A DNA stretch of 64,000 bases, from positions 1-64,000 of IMG/VR virus record IMGVR_UViG_3300023174_006980; one strand, given 5' to 3'. Below the pieces are notes generated by a model that was given only the letters and a program-made list of their open reading frames with translations, was not told where the DNA came from and did no database searches. Of this stretch, positions 14,113-60,236 are shown piece after piece. Origin of the DNA: a virus. The translations under genes and the position numbers were made by a program. The first letter of the stretch is position 1. Each line of letters begins with the position of its first letter.

Positions 14113-14113
14113 T

Positions 14114-14121
14114 TATATATC
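14114..14121 (-). promoter_or_regulatory. GATATATA box (candidate late promoter) for the endonuclease
   Basis: TATATATC on the + strand directly upstream of the minus-strand ORF. Confidence 0.55.
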
Positions 14122-14151
14122 AGTTAGTTTAATCCTAACTTTAATTAAATC

Positions 14152-14159
14152 GATATATA
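14152..14159 (+). promoter_or_regulatory. GATATATA box (candidate late promoter) for the gp25-gp6 operon
   Basis: Exact motif 6 nt upstream of ATG 14166. Confidence 0.65.
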
Positions 14160-14165
14160 AAGAAG

Positions 14166-14537
14166 ATGATTAGAATTACAGACATATATCCAAGAAATCC
14201 AGACGATCCAAATTATGTTGCGGATAAGCTAGAAACAGATGACGTTGTGGAATCTGCTATAGGAATGATAAAACAGATCATGCTAACTAAGCCTGGGTCT
14301 GTTTTAGGCGATCCTTTTTTTGGTTTAGATCTGGAATCTTTAGTTTTTGATTTCGAAGTTTCGGAAACCGAATTAAGAGAGGCAATAGGACTACAATTAT
14401 ACACGTATTGTCCGTTTGCTAGGGATATACTTAAAGTAGGATTTAATCTAGGATTTTTTAAGGGGGATACCAGAGATGCATGTGTTATAGAGTTTGCAAT
14501 TCAAGGTAATCCAGTTTTAGGAATAAAGGTAATTTAA
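14166..14537 (+). CDS. gp25: Baseplate wedge subunit gp25-like
   Basis: IKQIMLTKPGSVLGDPFFGLDLESLVFD is the GPW/gp25 motif, and the gene precedes gp6. Confidence 0.85.
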   Translation: MIRITDIYPRNPDDPNYVADKLETDDVVESAIGMIKQIMLTKPGSVLGDPFFGLDLESLVFDFEVSETELREAIGLQLYTYCPFARDILKVGFNLGFFKGDTRDACVIEFAIQGNPVLGIKVI

Positions 14538-14539
14538 AA

Positions 14540-16275: not shown

Positions 16276-16530
16276 ATGTTTACAACAGAAAAGAAAAGTT
16301 ACCACGAATACATTAATTCCATGCAGGATGAAAGAACTAATGTGGGTTTTGATTATGAGGGAATGATATTTCAAAAAACATTATCCGATGTAACATTAAA
16401 TGGTGACAGAACAAGAATGGGAATTCTTAAATCTCTAGAAAAAGTAATCTATAGACTTGTAGAATCAACCAAGGACATTAGAAATTTTATGAATTACAGA
16501 GTTCCTAAAAATAATAAGTACGTTAGATAA
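16276..16530 (+). CDS. Small hypothetical baseplate-operon protein
   Basis: 84-aa ORF tightly coupled to both neighbours (TAATG overlap with the next gene). Confidence 0.7.
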   Translation: MFTTEKKSYHEYINSMQDERTNVGFDYEGMIFQKTLSDVTLNGDRTRMGILKSLEKVIYRLVESTKDIRNFMNYRVPKNNKYVR

Positions 16531-19500: not shown

Positions 19501-22500
19501 TGGTTTTAAAAACATTTGGCGAAGTTGTCGCAACTGCAGCAGTTGATTTTGGGCTTAAGCCTACAAAATTAACAGGCTTTACTAGCTTACGTCCAGGAGG
19601 GGGTATTGGTCCTGTTATTGCCACTATAAATCCATCATATTTACCACACACTTTTGCTAATGGAGATTTTGTTACTATTATAGATAACAACGTTGGAACC
19701 TTAATTAATAGAAGTGGATCATATGAAATATCTAATGTAACAACGACTGGATTTACATTACCCTTTACTAGCACAGAAATACTAAATCCGCTATTAATAA
19801 ACATAATAAAAACTGGTACAATTACAGTTAGCTATGATAATAATATATGTGGAACTGTAGATTTTAACGGAAGACTGGATTCAACACTTGGTAATCTGAT
19901 GTTTAGTATAAATAATTCAACAAAAGAGCCTAAATTTGGTATTGATACTATTGAATCTTCTAATATTACAGATCCTTTTGTTACAGAATGGCTTAGAGTT
20001 ACTTTTAAAGCTCCATTAGGATCGGGTAGCTCGTTTAATGGCAAAGTTCTAAGTATATCCATGAGCGGAGGAATATATGCGTATAATGGCCTTATACCAG
20101 TTCAATCATATAATGCTCCAATCATAAATGGTGCTAACTCATATGATGAGTATGTCGATTATGAATTCAATGGAGATCTTCCAACAGAAAACACAAGATT
20201 TTATGGGACTAAAGCATTAAACTGGGATGCGTTTGATCTTTTAGATTGGGATAATGTTTATGCACAGACATGGGGAATGTATGATTATCATAACGATTGG
20301 CTAGGAGGATTTTCAATCTATAACATAAAAAATAGGGATAAATTAAGAGTAGGAAAAGATACCACAGGAATAACAATGGATGAATCTATTCTTCCAAATT
20401 TAAGCTTAGATTATTTAGATCTAAATGAAGCATGTATCCAACTTAATAATTCTAAGGATCCTGGAATATCTAAATTCACATACAGTGTAAATGGATTCTC
20501 TAAACTCCCCGATAACTATGGAATAGGCTCAAGTCCTATAGGAGCTCCTTTAACAGCTCTAGCAATACCATACAATGAAAGTACTGATGCCTATGATGTT
20601 CAAACTGGAACTTCCCCTAGCATGGATGCTCCAACCTCTATAACACAAAATCCTAGTGGAGATATAATAATGGGCGGTGATTATTTCGTAAAATTATTTA
20701 ACTCCTCTACCAACATAGATGCATATCCAATAGGCGGAGAATATGTGGGATGTATTCCTAGAAAAGTCTACAATGATGAGTATGATAACTGGTGGTGCTA
20801 TGGTGAAAGATGTCAAATCCCTTTAGTTATCTATAATAGAAATAATGCAGAATCTTCTCTGGTTTTTAGCACATCACCTATATCTGGATTGCAGAATGCA
20901 GAGAATAATATAATTGTTCCCGTTCCTGACAGCCAGTTTCAGATTATATGTCTAGCAGTTGATGGAATGACCGATAATTTTGCTATGTATGTTAGATACA
21001 AGCAATATTATACTAGCCCAATTTCTAGTAGTGAAGATGTTTATAAATTATTATTTTACAATGCTTCTACTAAAGAATTTTTAGATATCTCTACAACAGG
21101 CCCAGCATGGAATATTACTGACGTTTATGATATTGGAAATATAGTTACATATAACGGAGATTGCTATTTAAAAATAAACACACAGGGCAATAGCTCAACC
21201 TTCCCCGCATCAGGAAGCAACGCTAACTGGGAAAAAATAGAATTTAATACCCCTGGATTAATAGATCTTTCTGTTTTTTCTATAAGACAGATGAAATATG
21301 AATATGTGGGTAAAAAATCAAATCTTTGGATAGCAACTGATGACGGTGTTAAAATCTATAATGGGTTTAAAATATCTTCTTTAAGAATCCAAAATTCGGG
21401 CATAAGCAGCAATGATGTTTATTCTATCTGCATTGATGAGGTTAATTCTAAATGGATAGGAACATCAGACGGCATAAATTATTATGATAATGAAAGATGG
21501 GGATGCTGGAATCATACAAGCGATCCTATACTTCCTCTAGGTAAAACTAGAAACATAACTAATATAGGAAACGGAAGAATATTTTTCATAGTACAGCTAG
21601 GTGAAGATAATTATAATCTAGTTTATTTTAACGGGAATTCATTTAAGGTTTATACAAATGATCCTGGAACTGTCAATAATTTTAGTCCAATTAATTATAT
21701 GGATTATGATTATGAGGATTTATATGTTTTTATTAATAAAGTAAAATCAATTAATGGGAATTTTACAAAATATCCCGATGATCTTTTTTATCTTTCGGAG
21801 CCTTATAGGACAGGAGACATATACGCATCGCCCTCTTTATGGGACTTTACAAAATTTGCTACCTATGTAGATCCGGTAGATACCTATTTAAAGAAATCAA
21901 ATTATCTAATTCCTTTCATACATGCAAAATCAAAATATCCAGGAATTGAAGGCTGGGATTTTGTTCATTATACCCCATACAGTCCAAATATAGATCCAAC
22001 AATTATAAATAATATAGGTATAGGTGATTCTGTTATAAATTTCTCTTTTATAGTAGGACCTTTAAGTGGTGTAACTATTTCAGGTAAAGACCCACAATTT
22101 CCCCATGTAGATAGAAAATCATGGAAAATTCCTTCATGGTTAAGGTATGATTTTGATAAGGTCTTAGACGCATTTCCAGGAACCGACCCTGATGATTTAT
22201 TTTTAGATGCACCTTTAAGAGATATAATAGATGGAAGTGCATCTAAAGAAGAGTATTGGAAAAATTCTAATGTAGCAAGAAGCGCAGATAGAGATTCAGG
22301 TAATTATATAGATGAATATGAGTGGGTGCTTAGAATAGGTGACACCTCAGATGATAAAGGAATAAGTGTATTTAGTGCTGATGATGGATTTGTTTATGTT
22401 ACTGGATTCTTTACCGGAAGCATATTCTTAGGTCCTAGAAATAACACATCATCATCGACCAATACAACACTTTTATCAACTAATTGTAGATCCATATTTG

Positions 22501-24134
22501 TTGCTAAGTATAATAAATTTGGCGTTGTTCAATGGGCTAGAAAATATGGTGAGGATCTTTCAGTACCATCCTCATATGATTATGATTATGAGCCAACCTC
22601 AATAAAAGTAGATAGATTTGGTAATGTGATAGTTGTGGGATATAAAATAAAAAATAGAAACAATACAACTAACGAATTATCATCTAATTTTTATTTAAGA
22701 TGGAACTGGGATGCAGAACTAGAGGTTTCAACATCTCTTTTTAGCTCGCCTAGCTCCACATCCGGAAATATCATTGATTGTGTAGAAATAGATAAGGTCG
22801 GAAATACCTATGTTGCAGGGACATTTAATGGAACCTTGTCTGGCGGAAATTACACCCTTACAACTACACTTCAAAGTGTTTTTGTTGCTAGAATAGAGCC
22901 GGATGGAAATATCAGATGGATCAATAAGCCAAACAGTGGAAGGAAAGAATGTAAGCCTTCAATAAGCTTAGGGAAATCGTTTGAAGATCTTTATTTAGGA
23001 TATTCTTCGATCGGAACAACTGATCAGATTGTTTATTTTAATAAATATTCAAGCTATGATTTTTTATCTAATTGGAGTAGAGAATTTTTAAATCCAAATA
23101 ATGGAACATCTGTTATTTTATTGGATCCATCTGCTATAGCAGAAACCAACATAAGTACATCTAAAAATGGTGACATTGCTTTAGCGTTAACATTTAATGG
23201 TCAATTAATCACAGAAGGATTAACACTAACATCTGTTGGATATGATTCTAATGTTATTGGATCTGGATCTACCGACATAGGAATAATTAAGTTTAATGGA
23301 TATAGAATTTTATGGGGAAAAACTGTAGGATCTAGTTCTATAGATTATGCGCATGATGTTAGTATAGATTCAGCAGGAAACATATATGTTGCTGGGTCTT
23401 ATGGATCTCAATTAATTGTATCGCCAGAATACACATATCCTAATTATTATCCAGGTCCTATAGGTAATTTAGATGTACTACTACTTAAATATTCACCAGA
23501 GGGGCATTTAATAGATGTAGTTACATCAGGTGGCGTAAATATAGACGAAGGTGTTTCTATGGGATTAGACGATGAAGATAATATTTATTTAACTGGATAT
23601 TTGGTACCTAATGCTGATTTTATAAATTTTGGTGTGGATTCATTAACTGGTGGTGCTAAAGACGCATTTGTTGCCAAGATTAAAAATATGAAATATAAGA
23701 GCGGTAAAAAGATAGGAAATGTATATTCCTGGCTGGGAGCAGAATCCTGGTCAGCAGGTGATGGTAAAATAACAAATAAAGAATTTGAAGTCCCTATAGG
23801 AACTACCGTTGTTTTCAATCCTGTTGGTTCTTTTATACCAGGAAAGAAAAATCACATTTGGAGATTAAAATACGATGTAACATCAGAAACACTCATAGAT
23901 ATTAAAGATGCACAATCTTTCATTTGGACCTTTAATAAGCCAGGATTTTATTCACTATATCTTTCCGTAGAGGATACAAATGGCAACATTTCAGTATTTG
24001 ATAGACAGGGATATATTAGAGTTATAAATCACAAAAATCCAGCTCCTGGAGAAATAGTTGATCTAGTAAATAGCGATACATTTAAAAGAAGAACAATATA
24101 TCCTCCAGAAGCTGTAAGACATGAGATTTCTTAA
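16530..24134 (+). CDS. Giant baseplate wedge (gp7-like) protein with beta-propeller, CBM-like and PKD-like domains
   Basis: GSYKGLINAIRFFG (gp7/tail-I-like), propeller blades LWIATDDGV and KWIGTSDGI, SBBP-like D..GN.YV.G repeats, and PKD-like PGFYSLYLSVED. Confidence 0.7.
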   Translation: MNYNNLIFFNKSGHQTNLIWNGNFWEARLMLPRVSVDLFETEHFFIVEKFKDLTGKTVYGYPHITPDVNADSSAAGIYGEFVLGSNLIRTDVPPLQDYVGSKLFCAQFPNGSEILSVDPVNNTITIQDNAILSEINVTLLFNIWKVSFETTRNVIDFDLFTGLKASIVSGRDYITVNVDTDQIKYSEYKLVILGDGIPKDARITSASGKNIYLNKICNVTLTNSDVFIYPIEERNDVSEYIYQYNITEDVNLDAPILNVIQDAYYKIDYDSTETFSGTQRISDSITSSSVSINLTLNSPDEGIFGRTLVIEDLSLGYPKLIARIEIHGETIGEDERYKILLKNFGRSLNNEDAYIIRDSDPSEPYPDYDIVNTKRKELLLEGHEIFPYMGSYKGLINAIRFFGYQDLRIKEYWMNIKKSGRTPKSALSENQSVIDSINSQIGSQSTLIANIHDDENSGKYKQVEVYGKKDDGTYGIKSSLEQIFPSSSFKKTSLFGLYYDINRTVEDEFDEFGYPVVENVFAFSPEEVLIKLFGLKEKLKKDYLPLNARIIDITGEGVYFEIYKTRGWIDQLKIDELNQGIDVEISATPKFGYIEDLRPFGLRPNNSIPYTPYVGPDPFEYNYTTYGNVTLPTVANNYLSPTQSEKLANAIDSFYYERDHLGVPKYRLGDGDSKMGGYFKLGDGQKYEVPSGFPTVLEVTSFNLSWDELDNKWGNLDRNIAYYTTTTASLSNITSYTGNPLISSSVNYTFDPLTGFGQFFNVTLPTGIAYLTPSAGRLQLKFTSNSDSSYSFLAEVFTYNNSTGNAYVKLLWSKTDAALDNWKVELVNLFSDNVTLNYYDYSFHSDGYYSWGNLRFAGFYEIEWTVTKTGENPYKYQTRDKLNKYWRIPLILPYSGVYSVRCRVWNGFNDICTAYFNEYIEVKTREIEIVNVARFREAEVYTWDNTKRAWEDYDSRWLFPVERMIPKFQISENVDDAAEYGNQFNEGQECMVLKTFGEVVATAAVDFGLKPTKLTGFTSLRPGGGIGPVIATINPSYLPHTFANGDFVTIIDNNVGTLINRSGSYEISNVTTTGFTLPFTSTEILNPLLINIIKTGTITVSYDNNICGTVDFNGRLDSTLGNLMFSINNSTKEPKFGIDTIESSNITDPFVTEWLRVTFKAPLGSGSSFNGKVLSISMSGGIYAYNGLIPVQSYNAPIINGANSYDEYVDYEFNGDLPTENTRFYGTKALNWDAFDLLDWDNVYAQTWGMYDYHNDWLGGFSIYNIKNRDKLRVGKDTTGITMDESILPNLSLDYLDLNEACIQLNNSKDPGISKFTYSVNGFSKLPDNYGIGSSPIGAPLTALAIPYNESTDAYDVQTGTSPSMDAPTSITQNPSGDIIMGGDYFVKLFNSSTNIDAYPIGGEYVGCIPRKVYNDEYDNWWCYGERCQIPLVIYNRNNAESSLVFSTSPISGLQNAENNIIVPVPDSQFQIICLAVDGMTDNFAMYVRYKQYYTSPISSSEDVYKLLFYNASTKEFLDISTTGPAWNITDVYDIGNIVTYNGDCYLKINTQGNSSTFPASGSNANWEKIEFNTPGLIDLSVFSIRQMKYEYVGKKSNLWIATDDGVKIYNGFKISSLRIQNSGISSNDVYSICIDEVNSKWIGTSDGINYYDNERWGCWNHTSDPILPLGKTRNITNIGNGRIFFIVQLGEDNYNLVYFNGNSFKVYTNDPGTVNNFSPINYMDYDYEDLYVFINKVKSINGNFTKYPDDLFYLSEPYRTGDIYASPSLWDFTKFATYVDPVDTYLKKSNYLIPFIHAKSKYPGIEGWDFVHYTPYSPNIDPTIINNIGIGDSVINFSFIVGPLSGVTISGKDPQFPHVDRKSWKIPSWLRYDFDKVLDAFPGTDPDDLFLDAPLRDIIDGSASKEEYWKNSNVARSADRDSGNYIDEYEWVLRIGDTSDDKGISVFSADDGFVYVTGFFTGSIFLGPRNNTSSSTNTTLLSTNCRSIFVAKYNKFGVVQWARKYGEDLSVPSSYDYDYEPTSIKVDRFGNVIVVGYKIKNRNNTTNELSSNFYLRWNWDAELEVSTSLFSSPSSTSGNIIDCVEIDKVGNTYVAGTFNGTLSGGNYTLTTTLQSVFVARIEPDGNIRWINKPNSGRKECKPSISLGKSFEDLYLGYSSIGTTDQIVYFNKYSSYDFLSNWSREFLNPNNGTSVILLDPSAIAETNISTSKNGDIALALTFNGQLITEGLTLTSVGYDSNVIGSGSTDIGIIKFNGYRILWGKTVGSSSIDYAHDVSIDSAGNIYVAGSYGSQLIVSPEYTYPNYYPGPIGNLDVLLLKYSPEGHLIDVVTSGGVNIDEGVSMGLDDEDNIYLTGYLVPNADFINFGVDSLTGGAKDAFVAKIKNMKYKSGKKIGNVYSWLGAESWSAGDGKITNKEFEVPIGTTVVFNPVGSFIPGKKNHIWRLKYDVTSETLIDIKDAQSFIWTFNKPGFYSLYLSVEDTNGNISVFDRQGYIRVINHKNPAPGEIVDLVNSDTFKRRTIYPPEAVRHEIS

Positions 24135-31604: not shown

Positions 31605-34600
31605 ATGGCAGAAAATAAAGACAGATATAAATCATCATTCGGTGTCATAAGATGTAATCCTAGGATTTCAGGTAACCTAAAAATAAGTGTTGATTCTAAT
31701 CAGAATATATGGCTTAATTCTATAGATTCTAATTCAGAAATGTCTAAGAATCAATACAAGGGGTACAGAATAACAGATGATTCTAATTTTTCACAGGATG
31801 TTTATTCTTTTTTTGATAGGGGTAAAACACCATCTAATTTTATATTCGGACTAAAAAATGAGGATAGAGTTAGAGACTCACAAGCTAATTCACTAGAAGA
31901 TCAATATTCAGGATTCTATGATATGGGGGTTTCTCCATTAGTATCTAGTCTATATTCTGAAAGTTTTTCTTATCTTGCCCCTATGTGGATGGGTGAAAAA
32001 ATTCCAAAATATTTTGTGATTTTCAGAATCGACGATCCTATTGATTTTCCGTACCAGGTGAAAGTTTATTCTTTGGAGATTGGTAAAATATATAAGGTTA
32101 TAAGCAATGTTGAGGTTGATCCCATAACAGGAAATTCATATGAACCAAGCCCTTATATTATAAAATCCGCTAGAAAAACATACACATCAGGAGATATATT
32201 TACTGCTACCTCTACATCTTTTTCTGAGGTGGGAGGAGAGGGAAATGTTATATTGTTGGATTCTAATTATAATAAACAATTTATAGAGGATTTACAAGGG
32301 CATCTGATTAATAATATATTACCAAAATCATCTATAGTTAAGACCTATTCTTTAGGTGAGAATTCAAAAATAGGAAAATACCTAAGAAAAATTAAAAAAT
32401 CCCAAGCATATTCTCAATCGTTAATAGATGCAAAATTTGAGGAAAGATCCTTAAGCCTATATAATGGTGTTTCGGTTAAAGATGGTGTTTATTGTAGTAA
32501 AGGTGAATATCTAAATAATATATTCACTAATGATAACAACATAATAGAATTTGAAGAGCATATCACAGATGGGTTTAAAAGAAATGATGTTATATCGTAT
32601 AATCTTTTAAACCTTGAATTTTTCTTTGATGATCCTGATGCAGACTTATATTCTATTAACAGATATTTCGGTCTTTATGTTGAAGATATACCTACTGGTG
32701 AGTTTCAATTATCTGGAGATCTTTTTTATACAAAATCTGCATCCAAAAATAACTTCCCTGAACCAAAATCGAAAACACAAATTTCTAATAAAATGATAGC
32801 ACCATTCTATCAGAACAATGATGGTGGTGTTAGATTGTTTCTTGATAATTATACTTTTTGGGGATATATTCCTAGTTCTGATGATGTTCATATAAACGAG
32901 AGACTTAAATTTTTCTATGTCAAGGATAAGAATAATAATTTTTATTCTTATAAACAAATACAGAATTATTCAACATTAGCACAGGATGAAGATAAATGGG
33001 GAGATTCTACAACACAAGATGATCTTATAATACTAAAAAATAAAATTTTAGATCTATCATTATTTGCAGGTATAGATCCAATTAAAACCAAAGAATATAA
33101 AGCTGAAATAACAAACAGCCCAGGTAAATCATACTCTGTATTGAGAATAGGCGATCAATTAACACCAGGAGATGCTATAGTTTTATATCATCCATTTGGT
33201 GTAAATATTTTGAATAATAAAAGATTTGATTATTTTATTGCATCTGATTTAACTTATGTTATAGGAGGATGGGGACCAGGAAGCTACACTGAAGAGGGCG
33301 GAGCATATTATTTCCATCCCTTTGGTACTAAAGCACAGATTGCTAAAGCTATAGCTGATGTTTTAAATAGTGTTAATTATAAAACTTATAAATGTTTTAA
33401 TATAGGCGAAGAGGTTATTGTGAGAACAGACGGAAACGACGAAAGAATAAACGAGCTTTTTTCATTCTATGCTTATAGCGACTATTATAATAAAACAGCT
33501 TTTACATCTACTGGTAAACTTTTTGTCAATGAAATAGATTTTAAGGATTTAACATCTGATATAAAGTTTATAGGAGGATGTAAATATGAGAATACTAGGG
33601 TAAAGATAAGAAAGGAGGATTCTAATAAAATAACTCCTGGTGTTAGCTATGTTAGAACTAATTATGGCTTATCTAAGGTTAAGTTTATAGGATCGTGTAT
33701 AGATGAAACAACATCTGAAGTTGATACACTAACTATAAAAGATTATAATTCACATTCTATTATTGAAATAGAAGATCACACACATACAGTTTTATTAGGA
33801 ACATCTAAAACATTAATTGTTGAAGAGCTGGTTAAAATACAAACGGGAGTTTTTTCAATGTATGGATTAAAAGATCTTGATATTGATTTTTGGTCTAGTA
33901 CTTATGGGAAAACACCAACTGAAGAGTACTATAGATATATTGATGTTCAACCTGACGGAATAACACCAATTATATCGGGTATGGATTATGCAGTTGCTGC
34001 AGATGCAGTAATAAAGTATATGGGAGTTAGGTATGGAGATTTATCTTCTGGTCCAATTTTTATATTCAGAGGCGGTACTGATCCAGCATATAAATTAATA
34101 ACTCCATCGGTACTTTCTAGACAAAATGTTGTACCTTCTCTATATGTTAATGATATATACGATTTATTATCTACTGGAAATAATAATCCACAAACGGATC
34201 TTGATAAATTTCCAGGCTTTGCTGGATTGCAGGATATTAAATTTTTAGAAGATACGCCTGGAATCTTCACTAAGAAGGATCAATTATTTTTTGGTAAGAC
34301 CGATAATGAATATGATGTTCTTAAAGAAAACTCACAAAGAGCATTAACCCTAAAATCAAGGGTTACCCCATATATTTCCAAATGGGTTTATGAGGGTGGA
34401 ACAGATGTTAGAGGAAATGATTACAGACTAAATGTAAGTCATGCTTTTACTCCGTTAAACTTCTCCCCTAGTTTTTTTAGCAATGGTAGAGATCCTTTAT
34501 ATTTTACTAATGAGTGGTATTTATTAGAAAACCCACCAATATTAGCAACTACCTCCCTTTTAAAAACAAGCTCGAATTATTGTGTGGGTAATATAGATAT

Positions 34601-37337
34601 GAATCTTCTAAAGAATGCAGATCCAGGTATACCTGATTATTTTTTAAATTATTTCACAGTAGAAGGAAATGATTTCTATAATATAGATCCTATAAGATAC
34701 AGTGATCTTAAAAATAAACCTTCAGAGGAAAAATACACATACTTCACATATAATAGCGCATCTGGATTTGCAGAAACTATATTTAGAGGAGTTAAAGTAA
34801 GGATAAAAGAAAGAACAGATTCTTCATTACAAACAAAACAAAGAGATCAATTTAAGACAGGTGACAAGAAGTTTAATGATTATAAATTTTCATGTATTTT
34901 AAAATCAATAGAGGATCCAGATCCTTATAGTGTTACATCACCTATAACTTTTCAAATACATCAAAATGACACATTCAAGCATATTACCTTTCTAATAACA
35001 GTTATAATTAATGATTCTAGATTTATAGATCCATCTAAACTTATATCTGCCATATCCGATCCTACTGGTGTTGCGTCTATTGATGCATTTAATACAACGG
35101 GTACATGGTACTATAATCCACAAGGAATATATGGGGGCATTGATTATTTTGGATTATACTCAGTTTCAAATAAAACAAAGCATATAGTAATAGGCCAAGA
35201 TCCGCCACAATATCCGCCTGCGGATTATCTTAACTGGTCTACTAATAATCCATCAAAAAACCCTATAGCATCTGATACCGGTCACGTTAAGCTTAGCGCT
35301 GGACTTAATGCGACCTCTCTAGGTAGCATGGGAATTATTCCTTCTGTTGATTCAGGAACATTAAACGCAACAGGAATAATTCCTATAGCAGAAAATGAGA
35401 ATTATGATACAGATTTAAGGGAAGAAATGAAATATAATGATCCCACCACAGTAGCTCCAAATGATCCTGCTCCAAAGGTCTTTAGCAAAAATTATTTATT
35501 TTCACCTAAGCAGGGAAATACTATTTTTCAGCCATTCTTTTCCACGCCTGTTCCAACTGGGGTAGGAAAGAACTATATTAATTTCAATCAAACGCGTTAT
35601 TACGACCCTTTGACCGGATATTTCTTTAATTTTACGGGTGCTGGATATCCTCCACCTCTTTTTACTAGTATACCAATTCCAGGGATTCAGTATAATAATA
35701 TAAAAAATAGAGCTGTATATCAAAGCGAGTCGGGAGAAAATTATTGGGATTTTATATTTAATAAATTAAGTTTTCCTGAAATTTATAAATTATTTACATC
35801 AGACAGTCCTTATATTAAATATACAAGATCATATTGGGACGAGACAACTAAATCCACTCTTTATAAGGATGACACCTTTGCATTAGAATTAGTTAAGCCA
35901 TCATCTTTTTTACAAAAATCCAGAAAGGTACCCCTTGAGGAAGATTTTAAACCTGATGTATTTTCCAATATTATTGCTGGATATAAATTAGCTGACGAGA
36001 AAACTATAACCGAGTATTTTAGATATGGAGGAGGATACTCTCCTAAATTTAAAGATGTATTATTTTTTGATAACATTAAAAATGATCATCTTAATGCCGA
36101 TAAAAATCCCATATCTAACACAGATATGCTTGATGTACTTGTTACCCTTAGAGAAAAAACAGATGCTGAATCTGAATACTATGGTATTGGGTCTGATTAT
36201 GAGATTTTAATAGACGGAATGCCTAGGAAAAAATTAAGGCTTGTTAGAGGCAATACCTATAAATTTATTTTTGATAATTTTACATCTCTTGCAAATCCTC
36301 CATCTCCACCTTCATTAATACAAAAAGATTTTATAATATCTGGGGTAGAAAATTCGGGCGAGGTAGTTAACATATATTCTAAGGGATTTATAAACTCCGC
36401 TTCTGATAGCGTTTTATTTACTATTCCACAGGATGCACCCGATATTTTATATTATGAGCTTTCTGGCGAAAATTTTTCAGGAGGAACTGCTATAATAGCT
36501 GAAGGATTAGAATTTAAAAATACAACATTGGGAATTAACAAAGAATCTTTTGGACTAGTTAAAAATCTTAATTATTATAAATACTCAGGAATAAATCCAT
36601 TTAGAATAGATCCACAGTCAGGATATAAATTAGAGTATCCCCTTATAGGTGAAACCCCTATAGATAGAAGAGATGTTTCTATATTTGAAAGTACTTGGGA
36701 TCCTGGAAGATACAGAAAGTACTCATCATCCTTATCCTATGAAGAATTACCGGGAACCAAAAACATGACCGAGGATAAATCATTTTTTGGCAGCAAGGTT
36801 ATGAAAACCCCAGAAACTATTAAACAATCATTTCAGTCTAAATATCCAACATCAATAGACGATGTCTTTAATAGCAGCATTGAATTATATAAAGGATATG
36901 AAATACTTTGGGAACAAACAGATACTTTGATAAAAGCTGTTTTATTACTTGACAGAACCGCAATTAAGCATTTTAAAACAGGCGGAGTTGCTAATTCTTT
37001 TAATAGTCTTTTAGTTTCTGAATTTGGTATAGGGAGTGAAACTTCACTTGATGATGATATAGATTCATATATTAATTCAAATATTATAAATGAATACGAA
37101 GCTAAGGAGATAACAGTCTATATAAAGAAACTACCAACCATTTATGTAAAGGGTGTTTCTGCATTAGAGCCAATAATAACTGATCTTTCAGATTATAAAA
37201 AAATATCAAGCGGATTTTTTAAAGCTTCAAATAATAATATAACTAGGAGAGGACCTCTTGAATTTGAGTATACCTTAACTAAGGATCCTGGATATAACTA
37301 TTCAGTAGCCTTTTCTTTTATTATAGGAAAAATATAA
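31605..37337 (+). CDS. Large virion structural protein
   Basis: 1910-aa ORF starting 2 nt after the previous stop, in the structural operon. Confidence 0.55.
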   Translation: MAENKDRYKSSFGVIRCNPRISGNLKISVDSNQNIWLNSIDSNSEMSKNQYKGYRITDDSNFSQDVYSFFDRGKTPSNFIFGLKNEDRVRDSQANSLEDQYSGFYDMGVSPLVSSLYSESFSYLAPMWMGEKIPKYFVIFRIDDPIDFPYQVKVYSLEIGKIYKVISNVEVDPITGNSYEPSPYIIKSARKTYTSGDIFTATSTSFSEVGGEGNVILLDSNYNKQFIEDLQGHLINNILPKSSIVKTYSLGENSKIGKYLRKIKKSQAYSQSLIDAKFEERSLSLYNGVSVKDGVYCSKGEYLNNIFTNDNNIIEFEEHITDGFKRNDVISYNLLNLEFFFDDPDADLYSINRYFGLYVEDIPTGEFQLSGDLFYTKSASKNNFPEPKSKTQISNKMIAPFYQNNDGGVRLFLDNYTFWGYIPSSDDVHINERLKFFYVKDKNNNFYSYKQIQNYSTLAQDEDKWGDSTTQDDLIILKNKILDLSLFAGIDPIKTKEYKAEITNSPGKSYSVLRIGDQLTPGDAIVLYHPFGVNILNNKRFDYFIASDLTYVIGGWGPGSYTEEGGAYYFHPFGTKAQIAKAIADVLNSVNYKTYKCFNIGEEVIVRTDGNDERINELFSFYAYSDYYNKTAFTSTGKLFVNEIDFKDLTSDIKFIGGCKYENTRVKIRKEDSNKITPGVSYVRTNYGLSKVKFIGSCIDETTSEVDTLTIKDYNSHSIIEIEDHTHTVLLGTSKTLIVEELVKIQTGVFSMYGLKDLDIDFWSSTYGKTPTEEYYRYIDVQPDGITPIISGMDYAVAADAVIKYMGVRYGDLSSGPIFIFRGGTDPAYKLITPSVLSRQNVVPSLYVNDIYDLLSTGNNNPQTDLDKFPGFAGLQDIKFLEDTPGIFTKKDQLFFGKTDNEYDVLKENSQRALTLKSRVTPYISKWVYEGGTDVRGNDYRLNVSHAFTPLNFSPSFFSNGRDPLYFTNEWYLLENPPILATTSLLKTSSNYCVGNIDMNLLKNADPGIPDYFLNYFTVEGNDFYNIDPIRYSDLKNKPSEEKYTYFTYNSASGFAETIFRGVKVRIKERTDSSLQTKQRDQFKTGDKKFNDYKFSCILKSIEDPDPYSVTSPITFQIHQNDTFKHITFLITVIINDSRFIDPSKLISAISDPTGVASIDAFNTTGTWYYNPQGIYGGIDYFGLYSVSNKTKHIVIGQDPPQYPPADYLNWSTNNPSKNPIASDTGHVKLSAGLNATSLGSMGIIPSVDSGTLNATGIIPIAENENYDTDLREEMKYNDPTTVAPNDPAPKVFSKNYLFSPKQGNTIFQPFFSTPVPTGVGKNYINFNQTRYYDPLTGYFFNFTGAGYPPPLFTSIPIPGIQYNNIKNRAVYQSESGENYWDFIFNKLSFPEIYKLFTSDSPYIKYTRSYWDETTKSTLYKDDTFALELVKPSSFLQKSRKVPLEEDFKPDVFSNIIAGYKLADEKTITEYFRYGGGYSPKFKDVLFFDNIKNDHLNADKNPISNTDMLDVLVTLREKTDAESEYYGIGSDYEILIDGMPRKKLRLVRGNTYKFIFDNFTSLANPPSPPSLIQKDFIISGVENSGEVVNIYSKGFINSASDSVLFTIPQDAPDILYYELSGENFSGGTAIIAEGLEFKNTTLGINKESFGLVKNLNYYKYSGINPFRIDPQSGYKLEYPLIGETPIDRRDVSIFESTWDPGRYRKYSSSLSYEELPGTKNMTEDKSFFGSKVMKTPETIKQSFQSKYPTSIDDVFNSSIELYKGYEILWEQTDTLIKAVLLLDRTAIKHFKTGGVANSFNSLLVSEFGIGSETSLDDDIDSYINSNIINEYEAKEITVYIKKLPTIYVKGVSALEPIITDLSDYKKISSGFFKASNNNITRRGPLEFEYTLTKDPGYNYSVAFSFIIGKI

Positions 37338-52096: not shown

Positions 52097-54025
52097 ATGT
52101 CAGGAATAAAACATTTAAGCGAAATATACAAAAAACAAGGATCACAATTTTTGGATGATCTTTTTGGAAGAGAGGTTACCGTTACAGAAAAACTAAACGG
52201 AATGTCATTCTCTTTTGAAAGAAGTTTATTGGATGGAACTATCTATTTTTATAAAAGGGATCAAAACAATCCCATATCTAAGATAGACAGAGTACTGATG
52301 CAACAGTATGATGATCCAATCTACCATATAAAAAATCTTCCAGAATCTGTTTTAAGTGAAATTCCTGCCGGATGGAGATTTGGCATGGAATATTTTTATA
52401 GCAATAATCCAATCTCTATAGCGTATCAAAGAACCCCTTTAAATGGACTGGTTCTTACACACATCTCTGTTAAGAATGAATTTGGAGATTTGGAGAGAAC
52501 CATAGTTGATAAGGAGGAGCTTGATTACTGGGCGGATATGATAGGAGTGGAAGGACCCCCTATTATTTTTCAAGGTGAACTAACGGATGAGCAAAAAGTT
52601 GCTATTAATGATTTTGTGAACTCACCCAATGATACTCTAAAGAAGGATCACGGAACTTATAGTTTTGCAAAATATCTGATCACAGTTTTAAACCCTAAAA
52701 TAGACAAATCATTTCTGAATAATTCTTTAGATGAACCTATAGAAGGAGTGGTTTTTAGATTTGGTAAACTAGACGGAACTGGAGAGGCTTTCACAGCTAA
52801 AATATTGGACCCAATTTTTGATGATATCACAAAACAAAATAACCTTAAAAAAAGAAGTTATTTTCCTAGTGACATATATGGAATTACAATTTTAGATGTA
52901 ATGAATTTTATACTTGATAAAGGAGTGGATTCGTTTGCGTATGAAGGAAGTGAACCATCTGATAGATACATCACTTATATTTGTTCCGTATTTAATCAAT
53001 TTATAGAGAAGTACGGTGAGAGGTATTTGGGATTAGACTTCCAGGAGCCAGACTATTTAAAATCTGAAAAATCATCATTTAATTTGGATTTAATACCTGA
53101 TGAGGAAACTAAGAAGATAATCTCTGATGATGAAAGCTATAAATCTTTTTTTAAACTTATTCTTTCTGCATTTAGAAAGATCAAAAAGAAGGAAGGCGGA
53201 TTTTTCACTAAAGGAGCTATAGATCAGTTTAATTTGCTTGTTAGAGAAATAACAGAATATCTTAATAGAGAAACCACTGTTACAGAATCAGCTATACCAA
53301 CTTTCGATCAGTTTAGACAGGTTAAAAAAGTTTTTAAACCTATACCGGAAGAGGAGCCAGAAGAGGAGCCAGAAGAGGAGCCAGAAGAGGAATCAGAGGT
53401 TAAAAATGAAAAGCCAGTTGAGATCGAAAAGGATGAAGAAATTGAAAGCTCAGATGATGCTGAGCTAGATCCTATAAGATCTGCAGTAATCTCTCACGAT
53501 CTTGCACAACAGACGGAGGGAGATCCAGTTAATCTTGTAATAGGAAAATTTAATCCATTTCATAATGGCCACTATAAATTAATAAAAAAAGCAAAGGACC
53601 ATAATGGATTGCCTGTTGTTGTTTTTGTTATTAATCAAGGTAAAGGATTCTTAGATAATGATATGATGACTAAGATGATGGATTTAGTTTCCTCCGAGAT
53701 GCAAGATTCCATTAAATCCGTTAAATTTGTAGATAATGATCTTTTATCAACAGTTGTGGATAATCTTGATGATGACTGTATCCCAAAGACCTTAACAGTT
53801 GGGAAAAAAAGATTGGACAATTATCTACTACAAAGTAGATCACTTAAGAAAAAGAATAAGATACCAAAAGAATTTTTGATACAGACAGCTCCAGATTGGG
53901 TTACCTCAAATCAGGTTAAAACCATATTAGATAATGAGGATTATTTAGATTTTAAGAAAAATGTGCCTAAATCAATATATCCACTCTGGGAAGAAATAAG
54001 AAGGTCTTACACTAAGAAAAAATAA
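52097..54025 (+). CDS. RNA-ligase-like nucleotidyltransferase fused to an HxGH (cytidylyltransferase-like) domain
   Basis: Motif I VTEKLNG, motif IV EGVVF and motif V TAKI; acidic linker; C-terminal IGKFNPFHNGH. Confidence 0.7.
   Translation: MSGIKHLSEIYKKQGSQFLDDLFGREVTVTEKLNGMSFSFERSLLDGTIYFYKRDQNNPISKIDRVLMQQYDDPIYHIKNLPESVLSEIPAGWRFGMEYFYSNNPISIAYQRTPLNGLVLTHISVKNEFGDLERTIVDKEELDYWADMIGVEGPPIIFQGELTDEQKVAINDFVNSPNDTLKKDHGTYSFAKYLITVLNPKIDKSFLNNSLDEPIEGVVFRFGKLDGTGEAFTAKILDPIFDDITKQNNLKKRSYFPSDIYGITILDVMNFILDKGVDSFAYEGSEPSDRYITYICSVFNQFIEKYGERYLGLDFQEPDYLKSEKSSFNLDLIPDEETKKIISDDESYKSFFKLILSAFRKIKKKEGGFFTKGAIDQFNLLVREITEYLNRETTVTESAIPTFDQFRQVKKVFKPIPEEEPEEEPEEEPEEESEVKNEKPVEIEKDEEIESSDDAELDPIRSAVISHDLAQQTEGDPVNLVIGKFNPFHNGHYKLIKKAKDHNGLPVVVFVINQGKGFLDNDMMTKMMDLVSSEMQDSIKSVKFVDNDLLSTVVDNLDDDCIPKTLTVGKKRLDNYLLQSRSLKKKNKIPKEFLIQTAPDWVTSNQVKTILDNEDYLDFKKNVPKSIYPLWEEIRRSYTKKK
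53345..53391 (+). repeat. 12-bp coding tandem repeat (PEEE), about 4 copies
   Basis: cc[ga]gaagaggag repeated. Confidence 0.9.
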
Positions 54026-54028
54026 TTT

Positions 54029-54054
54029 AAACCCCTAATAAAATAGGGGTTTTT
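54029..54054 (+). terminator. Rho-independent terminator
   Basis: AAACCCCTA-ataaaa-TAGGGGTTT followed by T's, just after stop 54025. Confidence 0.8.
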
Positions 54055-54076
54055 CTTGAGTACTATTTTTGTTTTG

Positions 54077-54970: not shown

Positions 54971-55153
54971 ATGGAAAATTACGAAAAATTAGTTGCATTA
55001 GTTGAGTCTATGAAAGAAAACATCGATAAGTTTTTTGTTAAAGGAAACAAATCGGCAGGAACTAGAGTTAGAACTCAATGTCAAGATTTAAAGAAATTAG
55101 CTCAAGAACTTCGTTTGGATGTTCAGAATTCTAAAAAAGAGGCGGGGGAATAA
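54971..55153 (+). CDS. Histone H1-like (Hc1 family) small protein
   Basis: KGNKSAGTRVR...LKKLAQELR matches the Hc1 N-terminal helical hairpin, a family common in Bacteroidota. Confidence 0.75.
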   Translation: MENYEKLVALVESMKENIDKFFVKGNKSAGTRVRTQCQDLKKLAQELRLDVQNSKKEAGE

Positions 55154-57213: not shown

Positions 57214-57561
57214 ATGATTAGAAGTTTATTTCCAAACCATGTTTTCGATCTTTACACAGATCTAGATTCACAATTAGAATCTTATCTTCCTGTAGAAAAT
57301 GGAACACTTACTTTAGATGTTCCTGGCTTTTCAAAAAAAGACCTATCTCTTGAAATTGATAAGAGCCTAGGACTTTTATCTGTTATAGGGGAAAAAGAAA
57401 TTAATGGAAAGAAAAGAAAAGTCAACAAATCTATAAGGCACCAAAAACTAAGAACTGTAGATCTTGATAAGGTTGAAGCAAAAGTTCAAGATGGTGTACT
57501 AACTGTCTTCATTAAAGAATTAGAAATTAAAGAGACTAAAAGACAAATTTCTTTAAACTAG
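57214..57561 (+). CDS. Small heat shock protein Hsp20
   Basis: LDVPGFSKKDL...LSVIGE...VEAKVQDGVLTV...RQISLN alpha-crystallin pattern. Confidence 0.9.
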   Translation: MIRSLFPNHVFDLYTDLDSQLESYLPVENGTLTLDVPGFSKKDLSLEIDKSLGLLSVIGEKEINGKKRKVNKSIRHQKLRTVDLDKVEAKVQDGVLTVFIKELEIKETKRQISLN

Positions 57562-57567
57562 TTTCTT

Positions 57568-57575
57568 TATATTTG
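57568..57575 (+). promoter_or_regulatory. Bacteroidota housekeeping -7 box TAnnTTTG
   Basis: TATATTTG 4 nt upstream of GTG 57580; no clean -33 TTTG seen. Confidence 0.35.
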
Positions 57576-57579
57576 GTGT

Positions 57580-57966
57580 GTGGAAAAGATTGATCTAATA
57601 CAAACACATTATCTTGAGGATCCCTGGAAAATCATGATTTCCTGCATCCTCCTAAACCAGACTACTAATATACAAGTTAGACCTGTTATTATAGATCTGT
57701 TCAATCGTTTTCCCACACCAAATTCTATTACAGAATCAGATGAATTCGAAATAGCAAGTATTATAAGAAGTACTGGGTTTCAAAATGTAAAAGCAAGAAG
57801 AATTATAGCTTTCACACAAAGCTGGAATTCAGGAGAAAGAAACCCTGAAAAATTTCCAGGAATTGGTCCATATGCTAGGGACTCTTGGAAAATCTTTGTT
57901 GAGGGTATTACTGATATATTTCCCACTGACAAGAAGCTAAAAATCTATTTAGCTCAACTCCCTTAA
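57580..57966 (+). CDS. HhH-GPD DNA glycosylase, MBD4-like
   Basis: DPWKIMISCILLNQT, FPTP, HhH FPGIGPYARDSWKIF and PTDKKL..YL. GTG start. Confidence 0.85.
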   Translation: MEKIDLIQTHYLEDPWKIMISCILLNQTTNIQVRPVIIDLFNRFPTPNSITESDEFEIASIIRSTGFQNVKARRIIAFTQSWNSGERNPEKFPGIGPYARDSWKIFVEGITDIFPTDKKLKIYLAQLP

Positions 57967-58006: not shown

Positions 58007-58780
58007 ATGGATAAAAATATTATTGTTGTGCAAAATGCTTATGAAGATATTACACATACTGCACAGAGCATATCATCAATTAGGGAAGCTGCACATAGAT
58101 GGGGTGTTAATTTTTATGAAATAACACATAAACAATTTCCAAGATCCCCCTATCCTACAGGAAGAGATAGGTTTTGGACTTATGAGGAATTTAAAAGCTA
58201 TGATAAGGTTTTAGCGCTTGATGCTGATATCATTATTAATTCTAAAGCCCCAAATATATTTGATGAGCTGACCGAAGATTATGATTTATGTGGGGTTCTT
58301 GATGGAAATCCTGGTGGTAGATTTAAGCATAATGATTCTTTTTTAAGAGATACATTATCTAGAAGAGCAGCTTTTATCTGTGACACAGAAAATGTCTTTA
58401 AAAATTGCATACCTAATTTTGATATAAATAAATATTGGGATAATTATATTAATACAGGGGTTGTACTTTTTAGACCCGAAAAAATTTATGATATAGCTCA
58501 AAAATTTAAGGATATAGTTCTAAATTCAGAGGAAATGCATTCATACTTTAATATCAAGAGTGGATCTTGGTTTTCTGATCAAAATATTTTTAACGGGTTA
58601 GTCTCAGTCTCTAATCTTAGATTAAAAATACTAGCTAATGAATGGAATTGGATACTTCCTGATATACAGGAGGAATGGAGAGATGATTTTTATCTTGGCC
58701 CGATGAAGCCTTGGATTTATCATTTTTGCGGAACACCTAATTCTAAGGATGACTTAAGAACCTATGATCGGTGGAAATAA
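58007..58780 (+). CDS. Glycosyltransferase, GT8-like (GT-A fold)
   Basis: YDKVLALDADII (DxD), YINTGVVLF, SDQNIFN, EWNW and IYHFCG. Confidence 0.85.
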   Translation: MDKNIIVVQNAYEDITHTAQSISSIREAAHRWGVNFYEITHKQFPRSPYPTGRDRFWTYEEFKSYDKVLALDADIIINSKAPNIFDELTEDYDLCGVLDGNPGGRFKHNDSFLRDTLSRRAAFICDTENVFKNCIPNFDINKYWDNYINTGVVLFRPEKIYDIAQKFKDIVLNSEEMHSYFNIKSGSWFSDQNIFNGLVSVSNLRLKILANEWNWILPDIQEEWRDDFYLGPMKPWIYHFCGTPNSKDDLRTYDRWK

Positions 58781-58826: not shown

Positions 58827-60236
58827 ATGATAATCGACATTGAAAATTTAGGGGAATCTTTAAAAGTATCCCATTACACGGAAGAAGGAGAAGTTGCTTA
58901 CTTAAATCTTGAAATACCAAAATCAGAAAGGTACTCTTGGAGAAAATGTTCAGCATCCGATAGAGCCAGAGAAAAAGGATGGGCATCTTGGGACGGATTT
59001 CCTATAAAGAAACAGCAAGGATTAAAATATGACAAATATAGACTTGTTGAGATGCTTGAGATGTTTGATAAAGATGTAACTAAACCACTTTGGGAATCAC
59101 AAACACCTAAGAAATATTTTGTTGATATAGAGGTTGAGATAACAGACAATCGAGCTGATTCACTAGATACATTAAGGGCTAATAATAAGATTCTAACCAT
59201 AGCAATTGCCTCATCAACGGGCAAGATATTGGTAATGGGATTAGATAAAATGGATTCACCTAAAATATTAAATATAGAGAAAAGGGTGAATGATCATTTT
59301 AAGGATTTACCCTATGATCTAAAGTGGACATTTAATTATAAATCATTTGAGAGCGAATTTGATATGATCTATACTTTTATGTCTAAGCTCATGCATAAAA
59401 TGCCATTAATCACAGGATGGAACTGGTTTGGATATGACTGGCCTTATATGCTTAATAGAGCAAAAAAATTAGGTATAGATCCTGCAATATCTTCTCCTAG
59501 CGGAATTCTTTTAGGAAAAACCCAAATACCAATGCATGGTTTAATGGTGGATTATATTGAGATCTATAAAAAATGGGATAGGGTAATTAAAATAAGAGAA
59601 TCAGATTCGCTTGATTATGTTTCCAAAGCTGCTAATGGAGTAGGTAAAATTCATTACAATGGAACTCTTAAAGATTTATATGAGTCAGATTTTGAGACAT
59701 ACATTTTCTATAACGCAATAGATTCCTGTCTTGTTCATTATATAGATGAAAAATTAAATACCCTTGCAACATTTTTTAAAATAGCAAATGTAAGTGGGGT
59801 TGAAATAAACAGAGCACTTTCTCCTGTCTGGACAACTGAGGTTTTAATGGTAAGAAAATTCCTGGAGAGAAAAAGGATAATAACATACGATAAAAAGAAT
59901 GAAGAGCACACTAAATTCGAAGGTGCATATGTTAAACAACCCATTAAAGGATTACATGAATGGATAGTATGCTTTGACTTTGCATCGCTTTATCCAAACA
60001 CAATGATGCAGTGGGGAATATCACCAGAAGTTTTCATAGGAAAGAATTTATCAAACCCACCAGAGGGTGCAATAAAAACAGCAAGCGGCGCATACTTTCA
60101 TTCAAAAGAAGGCAACCTTCCTATATTAAAAGACGTACTTACATCTTTATATGCTATGAGAAAATCAGCAAAGAAGAAGTATCAGGAATGTGAGAACAAA
60201 ATAATTCAATTAGAAGAAATATTAAAAAATAAATAA
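58827..60236 (+). CDS. gp43: Family B DNA polymerase, N-terminal subunit of a split enzyme
   Basis: ExoI VDIEVE, ExoII GWNWFGYDWPY, ExoIII YNAIDS and motif A DFASLYP are present. The ORF ends after the first fingers helix; motifs B and C are absent. Confidence 0.85.
   Translation: MIIDIENLGESLKVSHYTEEGEVAYLNLEIPKSERYSWRKCSASDRAREKGWASWDGFPIKKQQGLKYDKYRLVEMLEMFDKDVTKPLWESQTPKKYFVDIEVEITDNRADSLDTLRANNKILTIAIASSTGKILVMGLDKMDSPKILNIEKRVNDHFKDLPYDLKWTFNYKSFESEFDMIYTFMSKLMHKMPLITGWNWFGYDWPYMLNRAKKLGIDPAISSPSGILLGKTQIPMHGLMVDYIEIYKKWDRVIKIRESDSLDYVSKAANGVGKIHYNGTLKDLYESDFETYIFYNAIDSCLVHYIDEKLNTLATFFKIANVSGVEINRALSPVWTTEVLMVRKFLERKRIITYDKKNEEHTKFEGAYVKQPIKGLHEWIVCFDFASLYPNTMMQWGISPEVFIGKNLSNPPEGAIKTASGAYFHSKEGNLPILKDVLTSLYAMRKSAKKKYQECENKIIQLEEILKNK

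Follow-up and report, generated by a model that had tools for sequence, protein, structure and literature searches.

A core gene of T4-like jumbo phages joins an RNA ligase-type module to a HIGH-signature nucleotidyltransferase module

We establish here the folds, motifs, family and synteny of a single phage gene, located at 52097..54025 of a 64,000-nucleotide window (positions 1 to 64,000 of the IMG/VR virus record IMGVR_UViG_3300023174_006980), whose product combines an N-terminal half resembling RNA ligases with a C-terminal half that carries the HIGH signature and most resembles nicotinamide mononucleotide (NMN) adenylyltransferases (NMNATs). The fusion family to which the gene belongs comprises at least 1,155 sequence clusters, and the gene is a positionally fixed, syntenic core gene of the replication/recombination block of T4-like jumbo phages. 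We regard it as a real, uncharacterised new architecture made from known kinds of enzyme, whose function we infer. The reading that we favour, and to which we give about an even chance (probability roughly 0.5), is that of a bifunctional cytoplasmic enzyme of a T4-like jumbo phage in which an RNA or nick-sealing ligase of the Rnl2 class and an NMNAT-like adenylyltransferase would serve RNA-end repair and the upkeep of nucleotides and nicotinamide adenine dinucleotide (NAD+). Beyond this, an anti-defence role through tRNA repair and NAD+ restoration is a conjecture on our part.

Two nucleotidyltransferase modules in one open reading frame

A preliminary description of this DNA had proposed an RNA-ligase-like domain fused to an HxGH nucleotidyltransferase through an acidic linker, and every string that it quoted was found in the translation of 52097..54025. 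On the N-terminal side, the Pfam model RNA_ligase (PF09414) matches residues 25-221 just over its cut-off (27.2 bits vs 27), with EKLNG, assigned as motif I from its position in the sequence, at the start of the match. FGMEY (containing E98), IEGVVFRF and AKI occur downstream in the order of motifs III, IV and V, III and V being placed by order and conservation alone. An AlphaFold model of residues 1-410, built from a 32-sequence alignment, reached a predicted local distance difference test score (pLDDT) of 83.4. When this model was compared with the PDB by Foldseek, full-length T4 Rnl2 came first (2hvr_A, E 1.7e-8, 382 aligned columns), and the entries behind it were all RNA ligases, namely Trl1, archaeal Rnl3, NgrRnl, REL1 and T4 Rnl1. 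VIA, an independent structural search of the all-against-all type, gave the same picture with NgrRnl (5cot, Z 12.2), T4 Rnl2 (2hvq, Z 12.2), 1s68 (Z 11.9), REL1 (Z 10.9) and Trl1 (Z 10.6); the top nine rows were all RNA ligases, and DNA ligases and capping enzymes scored below Z 9. These alignments begin at model residue 1-3 and span residues 1 to about 250. The all-helical domain that follows, positioned like the C-terminal domain of Rnl2, produced no convincing match of its own in VIA (Z ≤ 4.4), and a search of PDB chains with the single protein sequence returned nothing significant (best E 0.11). The models support the N module as a ligase-type KxxG nucleotidyltransferase whose nearest solved structures are RNA ligases.

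The C-terminal half passes two generic thresholds, those of CTP_transf_like (PF01467, residues 481-514, 27.1 bits vs a cut-off of 21) and of the NCBIfam adenylyl/cytidylyltransferase model TIGR00125 (35.4 vs 27.7), and the top PHROG match of the whole protein is PHROG 3462, "nicotinamide-nucleotide adenylyltransferase" (1.2e-5). A model of residues 467-642 (pLDDT 93.1) retrieved 257 Foldseek matches at E ≤ 1e-3, led by phosphopantetheine adenylyltransferase (PPAT) and nicotinic acid mononucleotide (NaMN) adenylyltransferase (NaMNAT), with a best E of 2.1e-8 and TM-scores of 0.65-0.71. In VIA the Methanocaldococcus jannaschii NMNAT 1f9a ranked first (Z 15.6, root mean square deviation 2.1 Å, 147/164 residues), more than one unit ahead of NaMNAT (14.2), Francisella NadM (14.1) and PPAT (13.8), and NMN or NaMN adenylyltransferases made up 13 of the top 16 rows. 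When a family profile was searched against PDB chains only the C domain found matches, to PPAT and NMNAT, at E 5e-4 to 1e-3. GKFNPFHNGH aligns letter for letter with GRFQPFHKGH of the M. jannaschii enzyme MJ0541, and S-S-x-V-R, the consensus of the family, lines up with ISSSIVR of PPAT. At the latter site our protein reads T-S-N-Q-V-K608, thus with a lysine at the arginine position of the ISxTxxR motif; relatives retain this arginine (SGTEVR), and most members of the clade to which the protein itself belongs have lost it. Relatives with a canonical C domain (GRFQPFHNGH/SGTxVR) match archaeal NMNAT models best (NF002243, 4.2e-10; TIGR01527, 6.8e-8).

Because Pfam and NCBIfam cut-offs are passed, both halves fold confidently and the motifs are kept in a large family, we conclude that the motifs are not there by chance. 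The preliminary picture of two enzyme-like modules of the named superfamilies, separated by an acidic disordered linker, is therefore borne out by fold searches and Pfam: both halves model confidently onto the folds that it had named, and Foldseek places RNA ligases first for one half and PPAT/NaMNAT first for the other. The features of the gene are collected in Table 1.

Table 1. Features of the fusion gene and its 3' flank (window coordinates; residues numbered on the translation).
Feature	Residues	Coordinates	Strand	Basis or remark
Fusion gene, 642 aa plus stop	1-642	52097..54025	+	Single open frame, table 11
Ligase-type covalent nucleotidyltransferase (adenylyltransferase) domain	1-250	52097..52846	+	Pfam, AlphaFold model, Foldseek, VIA
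EKLNG	31-35	52187..52201	+	Motif I, putative AMP-accepting Lys32
Candidate motifs I E31-K32-L-N-G35; III F95-G-M-E98; IV E216-G217-VVFRF; V A-K235-I				
EGVVF	216-220		+	Translation
AKI	234-236		+	Translation
All-helical domain	256-392	52862..53272	+	Secondary structure of the model; position as Rnl2 C-terminal domain
Conserved short linear motif V-T-E-S-A-I-P-T-F-D-Q-F-R-Q	395-408	53279..53320	+	Low predicted order
VTESAIPTFDQF	395-406		+	Translation
Acidic linker of variable length, including PEEE x4	409-476	53321..53524	+	Varies in length and sequence in an alignment of 19 homologues
PEEE x4	417-432		+	Translation
HIGH-signature (Rossmann-like) nucleotidyltransferase domain, NMNAT-like	477-642	53525..54022	+	Model, Foldseek, VIA, PF01467, TIGR00125
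G483-K-F-N-P-F-H489-N-G-H492, (H/T)xGH ATP-binding signature	483-492	53543..53572	+	Residue-for-residue alignment with NMNAT MJ0541
GC-rich hairpin, then T run		54029..54057	+	4 nt past the stop codon

In the favoured reading the N module would be a polynucleotide ligase that uses ATP and belongs structurally to the Rnl2/Rnl5 class; its Lys32 would take AMP from ATP and pass it to a 5'-phosphate end, sealing to a 3'-OH then following; the substrate would most likely be RNA or a duplex containing RNA. The C module would be a HIGH-motif adenylyltransferase nearest to archaeal or NadM-type NMNATs, moving AMP from ATP to a phosphate-bearing acceptor, of which NMN, with NAD+ as product, is the likeliest. 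The two would be tethered by the flexible acidic linker, with the conserved peptide motif ahead of it, and could together act in RNA-end repair and in nucleotide and NAD+ upkeep during infection. It speaks for this reading that in G001, the one related genome in which a Nampt-like gene was seen, the C domain of the homologue is the only PF01467 match. If both halves are active, RNA-end joining and adenylyl transfer or NAD+ chemistry would be united in one polypeptide, with a bearing on phage counter-defence against tRNA cleavage and NAD+ depletion and possibly on non-canonical RNA caps.

A fixed position among replication and recombination genes

The source record is a 76.7-kb IMG/VR fragment with an estimated completeness of 25%. 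Upstream of the fusion gene it carries, in this order, baseplate, tail and fibre genes, a tail tube gene, a RuvC-like resolvase, a gp32-like single-stranded DNA-binding protein (SSB), a primase, a UvsY-like protein, a UvsW-like helicase and three unknown open reading frames (ORFs); downstream, some ten small ORFs separate it from the N-terminal portion of a family B DNA polymerase and from a MazG-like enzyme. The start codon stands 3 nt past the stop codon of the preceding 141-aa ORF, and the terminator-like hairpin and T run behind the gene probably mark the end of a transcription unit. Of 80 related IMG/VR loci, 79 have the UvsW-like helicase, UvsY, primase and SSB genes ahead of the homologue with order and strand unchanged, and 73 have the 179-aa gene downstream.

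A ligase fold standing among replication genes could be taken for the replicative ligase that joins Okazaki fragments, an identity that we disfavour as very improbable. The protein has no oligonucleotide-binding (OB) domain, all its nearest structures are RNA ligases, and the nucleophilic lysine is missing in a quarter of its homologues. We compared five related large genomes (219-434 kb, three of them rated complete), and all five encode a separate gp30-like ATP-dependent DNA ligase (PF01068) of about 440-460 aa; since relatives thus possess a DNA ligase of their own, we reject the replicative identity. NAD-dependent ligase (PF01653) was found in none of the five, and the three complete genomes encode further canonical PF09414 RNA ligases.

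For one relative of 245 kb (G005), 224 of the 254 ORFs with 70 aa or more were compared with PHROGs, the last 30 ORFs and four ORFs that straddle locus borders lying outside this set. The matches confirmed a T4-like core composed of terminase, sheath, two portals, major capsid protein, UvsX, a gp41-like helicase, gp46/47, clamp loader, an RNase H-like protein and a late sigma factor. The scans of these 224 ORFs named a clamp loader and no clamp, and a search for a sliding clamp with PF09116 and PF02916 gave either spurious matches inside the polymerase or none. The two portal genes are adjacent paralogues of 530 and 577 aa (146351-149677 of G005, equivalent to 12351-15677 of locus L096).

Several other genes of the window were recorded in passing. 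At 54971-55153 (+) a 60-aa protein matches the histone H1-like Hc1 family (PF07432, E 1e-21) and has a homologue in 71 of the 80 related loci, and the ORF at 55222-55437 matches DUF4494 (E 4.6e-9). Both families are typical of Bacteroidota and Chlamydiae, and hint at a Bacteroidota host and at a phage-encoded DNA-compacting protein. Genes for an HSP20-like small heat-shock protein, a fragment of an HhH-GPD base-excision glycosylase and a GT8 glycosyltransferase lie between the fusion gene and the polymerase (57214-57966 and 58007-58780, +). The polymerase ORF itself (58827-60236, +) is only 469 aa long and ends soon past DFASLYP, which suggests a split polymerase with the remainder encoded elsewhere. 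A homing-endonuclease-like gene occupies the opposite strand between baseplate and neck genes (12931-14112, -), and three very large tail or baseplate ORFs of 2,534, 1,910 and 1,514 aa (16530-24134, 31605-37337 and 4979-9523, all +) match PHROGs of unknown function only, or nothing.

Family, catalytic residues and the conserved peptide

Of 8,000 candidates scored in a word-indexed search, 477 proteins reached E ≤ 1e-3; when 1.84 billion cluster representatives were searched exhaustively with a profile, 1,155 reached E ≤ 1e-3 and 263 of these E ≤ 1e-30. All matches in phage collections and all taxon-labelled clusters are viral, as are the ESM Atlas neighbours of the protein, several of which are labelled RNA ligase. 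The best 120 of the 477 homologues are nearly all full-length, with identities down to 37% and contigs of up to 474 kb; precomputed Pfam assignments give PF01467 for 21 of these 120, PF09414 for eight and both for one, and public annotation lists them as "hypothetical", "cytidyltransferase-like", "NMN adenylyltransferase" or "phosphopantetheine adenylyltransferase", the word ligase being used for none of them. An annotated phage collection contributed only six records, all from uncultured huge phages of 462-735 kb, one with both domains and five with the N module alone. Among the best 150 of the 1,155 representatives three architectures recur: the N module alone (about 390-430 aa), N plus C (about 560-690 aa), and N plus C with an extension of 250-650 aa. 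The C-terminal extensions of the homologues of 860-1290 aa gave no Pfam match. The extension of one of them, P0127, is homologous to the 179-aa gene downstream of our gene (30% identity, E 6e-23) and may represent read-through of two genes. Four further proteins (P0125, P0126, P0129 and P0132) carry an extra C-terminal domain at residues ~640-1040, without Pfam match, in which inspection by eye suggests a PD-(D/E)xK-type nuclease signature (G-E-x-L-F/Y-S ... D ... E-I-K); if this is correct, they would be triple fusions of ligase, nucleotidyltransferase and nuclease.

Our protein keeps all mapped catalytic residues (K32, E98, E216-G217, K235, H489 and H492), with K608 at the arginine position of ISxTxxR. 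Its relatives are more varied. Motif I in 121 close sequences has lysine in 86, asparagine (ENLDG) in 21 and methionine in seven, the remaining seven being gapped fragments; the ENLDG clade also alters E98 and has DS in place of EG. In the same set the HIGH motif reads GKFQPFNNGH in 74 sequences, GRFQPFHNGH in 16 and GKFNPFHNGH, the type of our protein, in three. When our protein was grouped with the 80 IMG/VR homologues, 43 sequences were fully canonical in both halves (EKMDG ... GRFQPFH.GH ... SGTxVR), 22 were of the ENLDG/[IV]DS type and 14 of the EKLNG/EKLDG type. A more diverse set of 151 representatives was counted over those aligned at each position. Here K32 is kept in 113/143, R65 in 139/145, D64 in 132/145, K53 in 125/144, K235 in 130/145 and F403 in 118/139, and the C-terminal (H/T/N/S)xGH is intact in 62 of the 151, degenerate in 61 and absent in 28. 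The history of these changes was followed on an unrooted FastTree of 145 N modules from which the motif I columns had been left out.

Two explanations for the loss of the motif I lysine were tried and rejected. Compensation by the HIGH domain would predict an excess of intact HIGH motifs among lysine-less members, and none is seen (12/28 non-Lys vs 44/89 Lys, among members with a C domain). Nor do lysine-less variants coincide with a second RNA ligase: three genomes (G001-G003) have extra PF09414 ligases and their homologues keep the lysine.

It is to be noted that a number of these results weigh against the favoured reading of an active ligase and adenylyltransferase. The PF09414 score barely exceeds its cut-off, and an hhalign comparison of the family with a canonical Rnl5-like phage ligase from G003 was weak (probability 3.9%), aligning only ...LN..IEGIVFRF with motif IV (EGIVIR) of that enzyme. 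On the C-terminal side the protein scores 16.1 vs 181.2 and 18.3 vs 127 bits on the NMNAT equivalog/subfamily models (TIGR01527, NF002243), and even the best relative, P0103, falls below the cut-off (39.5 vs 127 bits). Because NMNAT folds lead the matches but the cut-offs of these models are missed by far, we call the domain HIGH-signature and most NMNAT-like, and not a demonstrable NMNAT. Of 114 aligned close homologues 28 lack the motif I lysine, and of 143 aligned representatives 30 lack K32; 89 of the 151 representatives have a HIGH motif that is degenerate or missing, although "degenerate" may include misaligned, unrelated C-termini; and two sequences among our protein and its 80 IMG/VR homologues, forming one clade, are changed in both signatures (EMLNG with G[DN]FQPFNNGD). 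On the tree at least 12 changes between Lys and non-Lys are required, and at least 36 among the three states of the HIGH motif. To judge from these sequences, catalysis seems dispensable in many lineages. The genomic context adds further points: a Nampt-like gene (PF04095) is present in only one of the five related genomes (G001), Tpt1/KptA (PF01885) was found in none of the five, G005 offers in its PHROG scans only weak, separate kinase- and HAD-phosphatase-like candidates for end healing, and a place among replication genes is not expected for a tRNA-repair or NAD-salvage gene. Repair in the style of Trl1, which needs Tpt1/KptA and NAD+, was rejected on the absence of PF01885 from the five genomes.

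That the gene is retained although its catalytic residues have been lost time and again, in a mosaic pattern, is puzzling in itself and points to a second, non-catalytic role. Taken to its end, this would make the protein mainly a non-catalytic or regulatory accessory of the replisome or of recombination, in which a ligase fold would bind ends or nicks, a ..P-T/S-F-x-x-F motif would tether it to a partner such as the clamp or SSB, and catalysis would be ancestral and decaying. We think this rather unlikely as the whole explanation. In its favour, synteny with SSB, primase, UvsY, helicase and polymerase is strict, protein and position are kept while catalytic residues are lost repeatedly in both domains, and D64-R65, K53 and F403, rather than the nucleophile, are the best conserved residues family-wide. 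Lys-less forms consisting of the N module alone occur in phages of 640-735 kb (EDVQG in LR756502), the surroundings of the motif are disordered and acidic, as is typical of docking peptides, and T4 itself offers an example in Rnl1 (gp63), a ligase that has a non-catalytic function as well. The peptide at residues 395-408 may resemble clamp-binding tails. Against this, none of the mapped catalytic residues is missing from our protein or from most of its relatives, no clamp gene was identified (PF09116 and PF02916 being without real match), and the pattern [IVLM]P[ST][FY]..[FWY] occurs in G005 on only three proteins, the homologue included, and on no other replication protein.

Within this peptide E397, P401, F403 and F406 do not vary in either of two alignments, of 19 and of 32 sequences, residues 394-410 have a pLDDT below 50 in the N-half model, and the adjoining PEEE stretch corresponds in the DNA to a perfect 12-bp tandem repeat of 3.7 copies (53348-53391). 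V395-T-E397-S398, located between the last helix (ending at residue 389) and the disordered linker of about 65 residues, is one of two [ILVM]xE[SAG] matches in the protein; 120 of 121 homologues retain it, and 17 of 119 retain the second match. As T4 gp21 prefers to cleave after Leu/Ile-x-Glu before a small residue, residues 395-408 are a candidate prohead-protease site (V-x-E|S), a partner-binding peptide, or both, and docking to a replisome partner or to the protein's own C domain is as good a reading as cleavage.

The preliminary description had suggested that the linker might be cut by the head protease. A packaged polyprotein would be loaded into the prohead and cut by a gp21-type protease after Glu397, so that ligase and adenylyltransferase are injected with the DNA as early counter-defence. 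Besides the conserved site at the border of fold and linker, a T4 gp21-type protease (Peptidase_S77, PF03420) is encoded in all five related large genomes, and four small genes neighbouring ours (50668, 54097, 54629, 56929-) open with a shared leader ending in [LV]-N-E, of the type M-K-F-I-K-N-F-S-N-Y-L-V-N-E. This leader, which ends in hydrophobic-x-Glu on unrelated small proteins, looks, as far as sequence can tell, like a T4-style capsid-targeting or cleavage tag. In G005, 4 of 279 ORFs carry similar leaders vs 1 of 1,153 internal-Met controls, and together with those of the neighbours they suggest that the clade uses such tags. In T4, however, packaging requires a capsid-targeting sequence, and our protein has no N-terminal leader of the neighbours' type, since its ligase fold starts at residue 1-3. 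In addition, the gene lies in the replication/recombination block (79 of 80 loci) and not with head genes, Glu397 is less conserved family-wide (90/128) than F403, and homologues made up of the N module alone retain the motif region with its aromatic part, though they have no second enzyme to release. The PF03420 protease was not found in the 76.7-kb fragment itself. All in all we hold packaging to be unlikely.

With regard to these leaders, a similar amphipathic type (M-K-F-[IL]-K-x-[FY]-x-x-[FY]-[LV]-N-E) is also present in locus L002 at 2660, 4704 and 8670, and in LR756500 it is borne by a 421-aa ligase-like protein (EKLDG ... EGIVF) encoded directly upstream of the homologue; none of the 80 IMG/VR loci has a counterpart of the latter gene within 10 kb. 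The late-promoter word of T4, TATAAATA, was not enriched (18 found vs 18.5 expected), and a scan for sigma-70-like promoters stayed below its shuffles (62 vs 73).

The pairing of the two modules also lends itself to a joint action on RNA 5' ends. The ligase and NMNAT classes make or break the same A-5'-pp-5'-N linkage, and Lys-less ligase folds can bind cap-like dinucleotides, snurportin being among the fold matches (Z 5.5). The NMNAT-like domain would then use the 5'-terminal nucleotide of an RNA instead of free ATP or NMN, making or removing NAD-type caps or A(5')pp(5')N, and the ligase fold would hold the end or complete the joining; a variant would have abortive 5'-adenylylated ends proofread by pyrophosphorolysis. 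That an NMNAT-like domain is covalently tied to a fold that binds RNA ends, in over 1,000 protein clusters, speaks for such a partnership. A review of the field (PMC8131947) lists RNA ligases as makers of A-pp-RNA and names NMNATs as possible enzymes of NAD capping or decapping after transcription, none having been found so far. The same source cites unpublished work in which E. coli NadD and NadR were without RNA capping or decapping, and intact HIGH motifs are not enriched among non-Lys members of our family, as counted above. We judge joint action on RNA ends to be quite improbable; if true, it would supply the post-transcriptional NAD-capping or decapping enzyme that this review calls not found.

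Relation to known ligases, adenylyltransferases and phage systems

The closest parallels to the N module are T4 Rnl2 (gp24.1) and the nick-sealing RNA ligases of the Rnl2/Rnl5 type, such as Naegleria NgrRnl and Trypanosoma brucei REL1, with which it shares the adenylyltransferase fold (Z 12.2 for NgrRnl, 12.2 for Rnl2 and 10.9 for REL1) and the arrangement of a nucleotidyltransferase domain followed by a helical one. Its candidate motifs KxxG, FGxE, EGxxF and motif V lysine also stand in the order expected of such ligases. It differs from them in an identity of only 15-17%, a score at the Pfam threshold and a helical domain without clear match to the C domain of Rnl2. Whereas the Rnl2-type form of motif V is K-x-K, ours has one lysine (AKI); moreover, our protein is fused to a second enzyme, and its family has lost the nucleophilic lysine in about a fifth to a quarter of its members. 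The C half has the fold and size of archaeal NMNATs (MJ0541, 1f9a) and of the N-domain of NadM (2qjt/2qjo), from which it departs by an identity of 14%, by Lys608 where the signature has arginine and, in most close relatives, by asparagine in place of the first histidine (74/121 GKFQPFNNGH).

Among functional analogues, T4 Pnkp and Rnl1 repair tRNA broken by anticodon nucleases, and our protein, as a phage ligase of the same superfamily, could likewise reseal broken RNA; unlike in that system no kinase-phosphatase is fused to it or encoded beside it, the weak separate candidates being those of G005 only. With the T4 internal proteins and Alt it shares a hydrophobic-x-Glu|Ser site, and its relatives share the S77 protease, but the site is internal, between domains, there is no leader, and the gene stands outside the head module.

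Full-text literature searches retrieved no description of a ligase-HIGH/NMNAT fusion; a 2016 Nucleic Acids Research survey of RNA repair systems may bear on its novelty. Jumbo-phage RNA ligases, as well as HIGH-domain NMNATs fused to Nudix or kinase domains, are described in the passages on these enzymes in PMC7824862 and PMC9503650, and those passages of the two comparisons of jumbo phages and viral NAD+ systems do not mention the present architecture. In the jumbo Vibrio phages treated in PMC7824862 the HIGH-domain NMNAT is fused to a Nudix or a kinase domain, whereas in the family described here its partner is a ligase.

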